From a virus (lineage: Duplodnaviria; Caudoviricetes), in IMG/VR virus record IMGVR_UViG_3300035698_013504, positions 1 through 64,000 of that record: a stretch of DNA of 64,000 bases, one strand, 5' to 3'. Below are positions 12,093-13,106 of the stretch, one piece after another; position 1 is the first letter of the stretch, and each line of letters begins with the position of its first letter. The notes beneath the pieces are model-generated. The model had not been told where the DNA came from. It was given only the letters and a program-made list of their open reading frames with translations, and made no database searches. The position numbers and the translations under genes were made by a program.

Positions 12093-13106
12093 ATGACCGA
12101 CGAAATCAGAAGTGGCGCGTGGATGTTCGACGAAGAGGACCTGGAGGGCGCCGAGCTCCAGAGCTTTCTCACATGGTCCCGTAAGATGGCGCTGGAAGCC
12201 GCGGGCCTGTCCGACCGAGAGGCCGGGTTCATTGTGTACGGTTACTACATGACCCAGGACACCCGCAAGCGGGCCGACAACCAGATTCTCGCCCTCAAGA
12301 AGGCGGGCGATCCTCACGGACTCGTCTTGTGGGTCGCGCAGAACTCGAGACGTCTCGAGAACAACATCAAGGCCATGCTCGACAAGTACAGCGCGGCCCA
12401 GCCCCTTGGCGAGTGGGCGCGAGGCCTCATTGGTATGGGCCCTGTCCTCACGTCGGGACTCCTCGCCCACATCGACGTGACGGAGGCCAAGACTGCTGGC
12501 GCCGTTTGGCGTTTCGCTGGGCTTGATCCCTCGCAGGAGTGGGTGAGCGCGGTGAAGGCTGCGGCGTTTGTGGCCGAACATGGCGTTTCGCCCGATACAG
12601 CGGCGCTGGCCGCGGATAAGTTTGGGCTGAACACCAACACGATCCTGAAGTTTGCGCTGCACGATGCCGCTGGCAACCTGCGCAAGCTGACCGCCAAGAA
12701 CCTGGCCTCGTCGATCTCCAGGCGTCCGTACAACGCGCAGCTTAAGACGCTGTGTTGGAAGCTTGGCGAGTCCTTCGTCAAGGTGAGCCGCAAGGGTAGC
12801 CTGTACGGCGAGTTGTACGCCAATCGCAAGGCACTCGAGATTGAGCGCAATGACGCCGGAGAGTTCAAGGCTCAGGCCCACGGGATAGCGAAGAAGGTGC
12901 CCAACCACAAGCAGATCGCCTCGTACAAGGTCGGTCGCTTGCCGGACGGCCATCTGCACAGCCGAGCCAAGCGGCACGCGGTCAAGATCTTCTTGGCCCA
13001 CTTCCTCGAGAAGGGCCGTATCCTGAAGGACTTGCCGGTTGTGAAGCCCTACGCGATTACCATCTTGGGCCACGCCCATGAGATCACGTTGGCAGACGCG
13101 ACCTAA
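12093..13106 (+). CDS. tasA: Nop-domain RNA-guided protein, TIGR-associated, nuclease-less (TasA-like)
   Basis: IS110/Nop-family motifs QDTRKRADNQ, GLIGMGPVLTSGLLAHID, GAVWRFAGLDP, PYNAQLKTLCWKLGESFVK, HSRAKRHAVKIFLAH; no DEDD/RuvC or HNH domain seen; directly followed by a 36-nt dual-repeat array. Confidence 0.8.
   Translation: MTDEIRSGAWMFDEEDLEGAELQSFLTWSRKMALEAAGLSDREAGFIVYGYYMTQDTRKRADNQILALKKAGDPHGLVLWVAQNSRRLENNIKAMLDKYSAAQPLGEWARGLIGMGPVLTSGLLAHIDVTEAKTAGAVWRFAGLDPSQEWVSAVKAAAFVAEHGVSPDTAALAADKFGLNTNTILKFALHDAAGNLRKLTAKNLASSISRRPYNAQLKTLCWKLGESFVKVSRKGSLYGELYANRKALEIERNDAGEFKAQAHGIAKKVPNHKQIASYKVGRLPDGHLHSRAKRHAVKIFLAHFLEKGRILKDLPVVKPYAITILGHAHEITLADAT

Follow-up and report, generated by a model that had tools for sequence, protein, structure and literature searches.

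A salt-lake phage genome of 200,903 bp (~201 kb) carries a gene for a Tas-like protein that has no nuclease domain and bears a long helical insertion. The locus lies within the window analysed here, that is, the whole 64,000-nucleotide stretch at positions 1 to 64,000 of the virus record IMGVR_UViG_3300035698_013504, and it raises the question of what kind of protein the gene encodes and what the insertion contributes to it. Based on the results described below, we suggest that the product is a TasA carrying an optional module at its wedge, where the module would have a capping role; we assign this joint reading a probability of roughly 0.55. The gene and the landmarks of its product are as follows.

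12093..13106, + strand: tasA coding sequence from the ORF call (337 aa, stop included), encoding what is almost certainly a nuclease-free Nop-domain TIGR-associated protein
12093..12182, + strand: short acidic N-terminal extension (aa 1-30), predicted to be largely disordered, with no nuclease domain
12147..12422, + strand: coiled-coil helices (aa 19-110), aligning to the coiled coil of TasH, TasR and IS621
12423..12530, + strand: first segment of the C-terminal domain (aa 111-146) with the GxGPV...AGLDP motif, Pfam Transposase_20
12735..12782, + strand: alpha-4 helix (aa 215-230) with W222 and K230, placed by alignment to SpTasH
13047..13079, + strand: C-terminal loop (aa 319-329), PYAITILGHAH, with Y320 and H327, placed by alignment to SpTasH

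The start codon is preceded by AGGA 9 nt 5′ of the ATG. One search returned 1503 relatives at E ≤ 1e-3 and a second one returned 2547 clusters at 50% identity, which indicates that the tasA gene is real. The locus was found only in DNA contigs of salt-lake metagenomes, which are identical to the window, and no RNA run was listed for it. A search of 50,697 phage records with the TasA protein (tblastn) and the polymerase gene (blastn) gave no match.

That the protein is a TasA of the TIGR-Tas kind is, in our judgement, close to certain. The whole-protein AF2 model (pLDDT 90.2) was matched to the Tas fold by Foldseek with a probability of 1.00, and structural alignment gave Z 19.8 with TasH (9w04_B; 231 aligned residues, rmsd 3.3) and Z 18.4 with TasR (9mty_B; 193 aligned residues, rmsd 2.4), IS621 being well below both at Z 13.8. 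At the sequence level, PHROG 4285 matched at 5e-32, and a PDB sequence search found TaTasR (9mty, 6e-9) and SpTasH (3e-8), which rose to 4e-24 and 2e-11, respectively, in a profile search. The Tas-like character given to the protein in the first-pass annotation of this DNA is borne out. PF02371 (Transposase_20) covered residues 114-149 at E 0.0023, under its curated cut-off, and left the rest of the protein undetected; within this segment G114, G116, P117, A142 and G143 were invariant or nearly so in the aligned relatives. Nop proteins such as Nop5, Nop56 and Nop58 of box C/D snoRNPs were absent among the fold matches listed, those lists being filled by Tas and IS110 chains. The phage protein has no room for an N-terminal domain of the fibrillarin-binding type, and the guides of its array are without long K-turn stems.

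The residues specific for Tas proteins are kept as well. W222 and K230 align with W203 and K211 of SpTasH at an identical 8-residue spacing; among 43 relatives, K230 is invariant and W222 nearly so. In solved Tas complexes, this aromatic-basic pair is stacked against the guide and inserted as a wedge into the DNA duplex (PMC13421893; 10.64898/2026.08.11.744272). Y320 and H327 align with Y289 and H296 of SpTasH and form a putative Tyr/His tigRNA-processing dyad, from which metal-independent guide processing is predicted; the role of such a dyad is described in the two sources just cited. H327 is invariant, the position of Y320 is Phe in some of the aligned relatives, and the loop 319-329 that holds both residues has low confidence in the AF2 model. 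The coiled-coil helices (19-38, 41-71, 76-102 and 104-110 in the AF2 model) probably serve as the dimerisation scaffold, as in the solved relatives.

The structural alignments with TasH and TasR begin at residue 38-40 of the phage TasA, equivalent to residue 65 of TasH and residue 112 of TasR. They start after the HNH domain of TasH and the RuvC domain of TasR, so the ~37 residues that precede leave no room for a nuclease. The first 30 residues include 8 acidic ones (Asp/Glu) and 2 Arg. Model confidence is low at this end, with pLDDT below 50 for residues 1-14 and means of 42 and 52 for the first two blocks of 10 residues. The length of the N-terminus ranges from 0 to 51 aa among the relatives, and the frame is closed upstream of the ATG, so that no hidden N-terminal extension exists. 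No nuclease family was found in TasA with Pfam, PHROGs or PADLOC, and PF01548, the DEDD/RuvC-like domain of IS110, gave no Pfam match at E ≤ 10; the structural alignment with IS621 spans residues 125-319 of the IS621 chain only. The initial observation of a short acidic N-terminus with neither DEDD/RuvC nor HNH is therefore correct.

A nuclease-free Tas protein acting as an RNA-guided DNA binder is a TasA in the literature (PMC12045711). TasA binds target DNA and represses transcription without cutting (bioRxiv 10.64898/2026.09.09.750476), and its ternary structure has been solved (bioRxiv 10.64898/2026.08.11.744272). Guide-dependent binding of dsDNA with no cleavage is known for MbTasA and PlTasA, the published repression assays covering stem-loop systems (MbTasA) and no dual-repeat phage TasA. 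The proposal of the first-pass annotation that the protein is an RNA-guided DNA binder, a regulator and not a nuclease, is supported by homology to TasA; however, since TasA binders and repressors have already been published (Science 2025; two 2026 preprints), this proposal is right but not new.

The presumed source of guides lies next to the gene:

13220..14530, + strand: dual-repeat TIGR array of 36 units, directly downstream of tasA

The array has a period of 36, apart from three spacings of 37 nt and one of 38 nt, and is closed by a final repeat. In each unit, the 10-nt repeats GAnyGArnCA and GAnnGyAmCA, in this order, are each followed by an 8-nt spacer, and the spacer length agrees with the 8-bp heteroduplex reported for SpTasH. 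Arrays of period 34-38 adjoin most of the 59 related locus groups. No second array was found in the phage genome. Guide units hidden in the gene have been reported for the wedge of BlTasA; a position-weight scan found none inside the phage tasA (best -3.2 vs. an array median of 26.6). Self-targeting by the guides was considered and rejected: the 36 spacer pairs in four arrangements had no site with at most one mismatch in the 200,903-bp genome, and the 14 two-mismatch sites equal the chance estimate of about 14. In public collections, we estimate that chance alone would yield hundreds of occurrences of a 16-nt composite site.

We suggest the following mode of action for the phage system. By homology to the solved TasR, TasH and TasA complexes, TasA would dimerise via its coiled coil, and its Tyr/His dyad would cut the transcript of the 36-unit array into guides of 36 nt. 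Each guide would then pair through its two 8-nt spacers with opposite strands of a 16-bp site, while W222 and K230 would keep the unwinding junctions open. Because TasA has no nuclease, it is expected to bind and block the DNA instead of cleaving it. Dimer formation, guide processing and DNA binding without cleavage are all expected of the phage protein from its homologs. For the phage, the system is a predicted binder and no cutter, whose guides spare its own genome.

The insertion lies in the part of the protein that corresponds to the wedge of TasR:

12519..12734, + strand: wedge segment (aa 143-214, 72 aa), corresponding to TaTasR G210-K230 (21 aa)
12531..12722, + strand: insert proper (aa 147-210, 64 residues), a four-helix module at the wedge tip, from the alignment and the AF2 model

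The boundaries of the TaTasR wedge were taken from the methods of the preprint and mapped to G143-N214 through the profile alignment to 9mty. The flanks of the insert are RFAGLDP (140-146) and PYNAQLK (211-217), and the helical character first noticed between them was upheld: four helices (153-163, 167-177, 181-189 and 201-208) are confidently predicted by AF2, plus a small beta bridge. The block-mean pLDDT was 94-98 over residues 151-220 of the whole-protein model, and the insert folded alone reached a mean of 87.5. The short-form wedge reads GLDPTxxWxKGxKRPWN and the insert-bearing form reads GLDPTxxWxG...(about 55 aa)...RRPWN, the module being placed between the conserved W150-x-G and the RRP junction. 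Across 43 insert-bearing proteins, W150 is invariant and the pattern of the module is conserved.

In sequence and profile alignments, the insert site is the loop after AGLTP in IS621, which we take to be the place of the catalytic serine in IS110 enzymes; the position originally given to the insert, at the IS110 serine loop, is accurate. In the phage TasA, the wedge module takes the place of this loop. The columns listed as invariant or nearly so in 43 or 42 aligned relatives include no Ser; the conserved residues of the wedge loop are W150, a Gly and RRP.

No known fold was found for the module by Foldseek below E 1. In the exhaustive VIA-align search, no match exceeded Z 4.1, a score reached by acyl-carrier-like and EF-hand-like four-helix bundles and within the noise for small helical domains, and the Atlas structure search returned the same weak ACP-like match. 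The module has no recognisable fold and does not represent any known type of separate functional domain. Its net charge is mostly 0 to +6, i.e., slightly positive. A helix-turn-helix reading, suggested by the pattern 'FGR...TL.RF', was rejected, as it had only single-member weak Pfam matches and no fold support.

In published Tas work, the wedge sits at the DNA unwinding junction, where it separates the strands and caps the displaced strand; in TasH, the nuclease domain docks on a surface made up by the wedge loop and the beta-hairpin. From its position in homologous structures, the module may enlarge the cap over the displaced strand and the junction, and it could occupy part of the room that the nuclease domain has in TasH and TasR, steadying the bound roadblock state. 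We put forward this capping role tentatively, as a possible function that falls short of a probable one. The slight positive charge of the module is weak for a DNA-contacting element, and the module resembles no known nucleic-acid-binding fold; both observations speak against capping. It should be noted that dual-repeat Tas proteins keep a compact core (2026 preprint), so that a large wedge is atypical among the characterised Tas proteins.

The distribution of the module indicates that it is very probably accessory and patchy. Wedge length was bimodal in 261 relatives, with 96 proteins having 9-15 aa, 165 having 52-161 aa and none falling between 15 and 52; the most frequent length of the module was 65-69 aa. 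As more than half of the closest relatives sampled have the insert, it is an accessory variant and no unique feature. The tree needs 43 state changes vs. about 78 with shuffled labels, the nearest core relative has the other wedge state in 107 of the 261 proteins, and a single clade of insert-bearing proteins was rejected (AU p 0.001). The module thus appears to have been gained, lost or exchanged many times, a picture drawn partly from FastTree trees of 241 columns with limited resolution. Separate trees of the N-half and the C-half, in which one recombination break at the wedge was sought, were equally patchy. A common and dispensable insert, which the first-pass annotation had counted as evidence against its proposal, is in the evolutionary sense what was observed: 165 of 261 relatives have it, its occurrence is scattered over the tree, and the relatives with a short wedge have arrays of the same kind. 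Insert-bearing genes were enriched on viral contigs of at least 100 kb (6 of 20 groups vs. 1 of 35; Fisher p 0.007).

Such a scattered occurrence, together with the rejection of a single clade, would also suit a module with little or no function of its own, that is, a tolerated insertion at a permissive loop tip, spread and lost by recombination of phage tasA genes. In P0003, the nearest core relative, the wedge is short and a neighbouring loop carries a different insertion of 36 aa, which indicates that the loops of the wedge region accept insertions, and the variation in module length from 52 to 161 aa points the same way. However, the pattern and the confidently predicted fold are kept across proteins only about 40% identical, the site is mechanistically central and no peripheral loop, and the association with large genomes is non-random. 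We therefore regard a functionless insertion as unlikely.

Alternatively, a protein partner might dock on the module, be it the product of a neighbouring gene, the phage RNA polymerase or a host factor, and TasA would then be a programmable recruiter; docking of a neighbour product or the phage polymerase had been proposed from the sequence. The module is well folded, placed at the surface, of unrecognised fold and of near-neutral charge, which fits protein binding as well as DNA binding. The docking of the nuclease domain on the TasH wedge loop and beta-hairpin offers a precedent, and the enrichment on contigs of at least 100 kb would fit a partner specific for large phages. The gene neighbourhoods argue against it. 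The genes within 6 kb were compared at 84 loci, which form 59 groups at 80% Tas identity. No family of flanking genes occurred in more than 8 groups, and none was enriched beside insert-bearing tasA genes in the 59 groups. For the neighbours at 11202, 11575 and 14677, neither a family nor a PDB relative was found, and no counterparts of them were present in the two insert-bearing loci compared directly. Apparent clusters of neighbours proved to be translated arrays and tasA ORFs read antisense or in an alternate frame.

The polymerase fares no better as a partner. PF00562 (RNA polymerase beta) had no match in five insert-bearing phage records rated 100% complete, whereas 14 of 14 control genomes matched, and the beta/beta′ protein of the window had no match in two of those five records and in one 77%-complete record. 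Consequently, a phage multisubunit polymerase cannot be the general partner, and without a conserved neighbour or a beta subunit in the five phages the docking proposal is unsupported. The patchy distribution and the same arrays beside both wedge forms also speak against an obligatory partner. Taken together, docking seems rather improbable to us. We see equally little chance that the module is an undescribed effector or recruitment surface, mainly of large phages, or a lock on the displaced strands. If this were true, a phage or host protein would be recruited to a guide-chosen 16-bp site, or the block would be unusually long-lived, and the clade would represent a natural 'programmable recruiter or clamp' as opposed to the plain TasA repressors studied so far.

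It is also conceivable that the module acts on RNA, either ordering the array transcript during processing or contacting the guide repeats. The wedge loop in solved complexes lies inside the guide figure-eight and sandwiches the box C bases, co-variation with guide features has been reported for insertions at other places in Tas proteins, and the arrays are long (29-43 units) at several insert-bearing loci. On the other hand, period-36 arrays with 10-nt repeats and 8-nt variable parts occur beside both wedge forms and dominate in both, so the array period and repeat architecture are alike, and no co-variation of the module with the array period was seen. In addition, the module is not basic and no RNA-binding fold was found for it, which leaves an RNA role with a slim chance. 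Finally, the idea that TasA is a degenerate remnant of an IS110-type transposase, unconnected with the downstream repeats, can draw on public annotation of relatives as 'transposase', the weak PF02371 match and the IS621 fold match (Z 13.8), but it is contradicted by the lack of a RuvC/DEDD domain, the far higher scores of TasH and TasR, the period-34 to 38 arrays beside the gene in most of the 59 groups and the retained Tas-specific residues, and is barely tenable.

Returning to a TasA with an optional and possibly capping wedge module, the analysis reveals a large group of phage dual-repeat TasA proteins with a wedge module of 52-161 aa that is folded according to the models. TIGR-Tas proteins are under development as programmable DNA binders that are very small and PAM-free; for repression and activation, the scaffold used is TasA. 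Wedges are compact in the proteins characterised so far. In the phage group, the module has been swapped in and out in nature with the guide format unchanged. This offers a natural comparison, with and without the module, for the control of R-loop stability and residence time, and it marks the wedge tip as a permissive site for engineering fusions.

Among the known systems, SpTasH of Salicola phage CGphi29 (PDB 9W03, 9W04, 21KL) is the best structural match to the phage TasA. Both come from phages of hypersaline water and have a dual-repeat array with 36-nt units. Unlike the phage TasA, SpTasH is a DNA cutter with an HNH nuclease at its N-terminus; its GIDK-NKTL gap is about 14 residues vs. 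64 in the phage TasA, which also lacks the nuclease domain that is docked by the wedge and beta-hairpin of SpTasH. TaTasR (PDB 9MTY) shares the Nop-domain dimer scaffold and the dual-repeat array, but it bears a RuvC nuclease at its N-terminus, its wedge has 21 aa and its spacers have 9 nt. [quoted passage not shown]

The characterised TasA proteins lie outside the phage clade, which is known here from sequences and models. They include FpTasA of Flavonifractor plautii, with a dual-repeat array, and PlTasA, BlTasA and MbTasA, with stem-loop arrays (PMC12045711; bioRxiv 10.64898/2026.09.09.750476; 10.64898/2026.08.11.744272). Like them, the phage TasA has a coiled coil and a Nop domain, no nuclease, a short disordered N-terminus, an adjacent tandem-spacer guide array and the aromatic-basic pair on alpha-4, and guide-dependent DNA binding and repression without cleavage are expected of it. 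The difference lies in the wedge, where the characterised proteins have loops or hairpins (hairpin A in PlTasA) and the phage TasA has a folded helical module.

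The gene for the nuclease-free TIGR-associated protein studied here, TasA, and its array are placed in the window as follows.

12093..13106, plus strand: tasA, an open reading frame call of 337 residues
13220-14530: dual-repeat TIGR array of 36 tandem units with a period of 36, directly downstream of tasA

The tasA frame is closed on the 5′ side, with no upstream extension possible, and AGGA is found 9 bases 5′ of the ATG. Pfam gave only a sub-threshold match to Transposase_20 (residues 114-149), and PHROGs assigned the protein to family 4285, labelled 'transposase' (5e-32). Based on a PDB sequence search, the only real matches were TaTasR (9MTY, 6e-9) and SpTasH (3e-8), with IS621 far weaker; the profile of 43 relatives reached TaTasR 9MTY at 4e-24 and SpTasH at 2e-11. 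The AlphaFold2 model built from the 43-relative alignment (mean pLDDT 90.2) had TasH chains as its top structural matches (Z 19-20, 231 residues aligned, rmsd 3.3), while TasR gave Z 18.4 (193 aligned, rmsd 2.4) and IS110-family recombinases about 13.8. The protein belongs to the known family TasA. The family counts 1503 matches in a 90%-identity cluster search and 2547 clusters at 50% identity, of which 949 score below 1e-30, and it also occurs on 527 IMG/VR viral contigs. All 261 relatives sampled are TasA, since their N-termini are all short.

The first-pass annotation was right that there is no nuclease: the TasH and TasR alignments start only at model residue 38-40, which pairs with TasH residue 65 and TasR residue 112, C-terminal to the HNH and RuvC domains, respectively. 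The stretch 1-30 is acidic, with 8 Asp/Glu to 2 Arg, its first 14 residues having pLDDT below 50, and no nuclease family was found for the protein in Pfam, PHROGs or PADLOC. W222/K230 align with the aromatic-basic pair W203/K211 of SpTasH, which stacks against the first base-paired position of the guide and wedges into the duplex, and Y320/H327 align with Y289/H296, the dyad for metal-free cutting of the array transcript. Judging from these alignments, the functional residues known from solved relatives are preserved.

Each array unit is built of two 10-nt repeats, GAnyGArnCA and then GAnnGyAmCA, each followed by 8 variable bases, in line with the definition of a dual-repeat TIGR array (PMC12045711). 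Units 1-4 (13220-13363) are partly duplicated: both spacers of unit 1 recur in unit 3 save for one base, and units 2 and 4 share an identical spacer A with a different spacer B. At four positions the array has off-length units (37 or 38 nt). No site with at most one mismatch to any of the 36 guides was found in the 200.9-kb genome of the phage; therefore, the system is not directed against genes of the phage itself. There is no second array anywhere in this genome, nor is a guide unit hidden in the DNA of the insert. Contigs covering 11500-14700 with zero differing letters were found in four salt-lake metagenome runs from 2017-2019, and the recovered pieces contained no array variants; no RNA runs with the tasA locus were found.

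The helical insert noticed earlier was borne out as 64 residues (147-210) between RFAGLDP and PYNAQLK. In the whole-protein model it folds into four helices with a small beta bridge (block-mean pLDDT 94-98 across residues 151-220), and modelled alone from its own alignment it had a mean pLDDT of 87.5. The fold of the module matches nothing recognisable: Foldseek returned nothing below E 1, and the best hits of an exhaustive structural search were acyl-carrier-like four-helix bundles at Z 4.1. Its site agrees with the loop after AGLTP of IS621, as claimed, which we take to be the site of the catalytic serine in IS110 enzymes; no serine is found among the conserved columns of the insert-bearing relatives. 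In the Nop domain partition of TaTasR (2026 survey of Tas diversity), the wedge spans G210-K230. Profile alignment to 9MTY places these residues on G143 and N214, so the insert is a wedge loop expanded from 21 residues in TaTasR to 72. The short-form wedge reads GLDPTxxWxKGxKRPWN and the insert-bearing one GLDPTxxWxG, about 55 residues and RRPWN, which puts the module at the very tip of the loop.

In solved Tas complexes, the same loop parts the non-complementary from the complementary DNA strand and lies inside the guide's figure-eight; in TasH, the wedge loop and beta-hairpin dock the HNH domain. Based on this position, the best-supported suggestion, with a probability of about one in three, is that the module extends the cap over the displaced strand and the junction. 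It may fill the space of the TasH/TasR nuclease domain and so make the bound state steadier. The module might also be a tolerated neutral insertion, although we consider this improbable.

Wedge length is bimodal among the 261 relatives: 96 have 9-15 residues and 165 have 52-161 (most commonly 65-69), with none in between. The module is homologous across the insert-bearing proteins, as judged by an invariant W150 and a common pattern. On a tree of core columns only, with the insert taken out, its state changes at least 43 times, versus about 78 with shuffled labels. The nearest core relative is in the opposite state for 107 of the 261 proteins, and the N and C halves give the same patchy picture. 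The AU test rejected a joint grouping of insert-bearing proteins (random subsample of 30+30 sequences; delta lnL 169, p 0.001). For the study protein, the nearest core relative is the metagenomic P0003 (319 aa, 63% core identity). Its wedge is 9 residues long, and it carries a 36-residue Cys-containing insertion, unlike the module, in the helix-hairpin-helix just before the AGxDP motif, so a second loop of the domain accepts insertions. It is unlikely that the module acts on the RNA side: it carries a net charge of mostly 0 to +6 across insert-bearing relatives, and dual-repeat arrays of equal architecture adjoin both forms, with period 36 dominant in both. Given this frequency, patchiness and likeness of arrays, the module is widespread, evolutionarily optional and linked to no separate guide format. 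A common and dispensable insert was the outcome that the first-pass annotation had set against its own reading, and in the evolutionary sense this is what was found. Among related phage loci, the array period was 35 in L034, L036, L037 and L044, 34 in L048, L078 and L082, and 38 in L052, and several loci had arrays on both sides of tasA or extra ones kilobases away. In IMG/VR groups, contigs of at least 100 kb were found for 6 of 20 insert-bearing versus 1 of 35 short-form groups (Fisher p 0.007), which we treat as a lead, since contig size is merely a proxy for genome size.

Docking of a partner, named earlier as a neighbouring gene product or the phage RNA polymerase, is likewise doubtful, and neither candidate stood up. 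All ORFs within 6 kb of tasA were clustered for 84 loci, which fall into 59 groups at 80% Tas identity, 23 of them module-bearing and 36 not. Apparent neighbour families were artefacts (antisense or alternate frames of tasA, translated arrays). These aside, no flanking family occurred in more than 8 of the 59 groups or was enriched next to insert-bearing tasA. Counterparts of the window's tasA neighbours were absent from two other insert-bearing loci, and the small neighbour proteins have no recognisable family or PDB relative. The window's large ORF 40128-44507 encodes a fusion of RNA polymerase beta and beta′-N. A clear, full-length homologue (33% identity, E 1e-213, open frame of 1985 aa) was found in one insert-bearing phage, the 169-kb record G002 (locus L074), and was absent from two complete insert-bearing ones. 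PF00562 was matched in 14 of 14 control genomes and in none of the five insert-bearing records (51-141 kb) with a completeness rating of 100%, so the phage polymerase cannot be a general partner.

Further afield, three tandem paralogues of ~134-145 aa (9386-10743) each carry a CPxCG zinc-ribbon-like motif near the N-terminus, with no family match except a weak double-zinc-ribbon. Straight after the array, a 418-aa protein (14988-16244) weakly matches helix-turn-helix families (PHROG 517, HTH_23) over its C-terminal third, with no counterpart next to tasA in the related loci compared. On the minus strand, 16241-17674 encodes a protein of 477 aa in which two stretches are MptE-like (PF01973); its relatives are annotated as sialyltransferase-like in PHROGs.

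Because the working residues are kept and the 8-nt length of the variable segments fits the 8-bp heteroduplexes seen with SpTasH, the study protein would be expected to dimerise via the coiled coil, process its own 36-nt guides, base-pair through two 8-nt spacers with the opposite strands of a 16-bp target and remain bound without cutting. This predicted activity is already described for TasA: other members showed guide-dependent binding and reversible repression without cleavage. The segments that the 2026 survey measured include wedge insertions, but that paper centres on stem-loop clades. A folded wedge-tip module of 52-161 residues is undescribed in the four papers covered that treat the wedge together with tigRNA. 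Its main value lies in a natural with/without comparison and a permissive site for engineering. Dual-repeat Tas proteins are said in the survey to keep a compact core; over half of the relatives sampled from the dual-repeat phage TasA clade carry the module.
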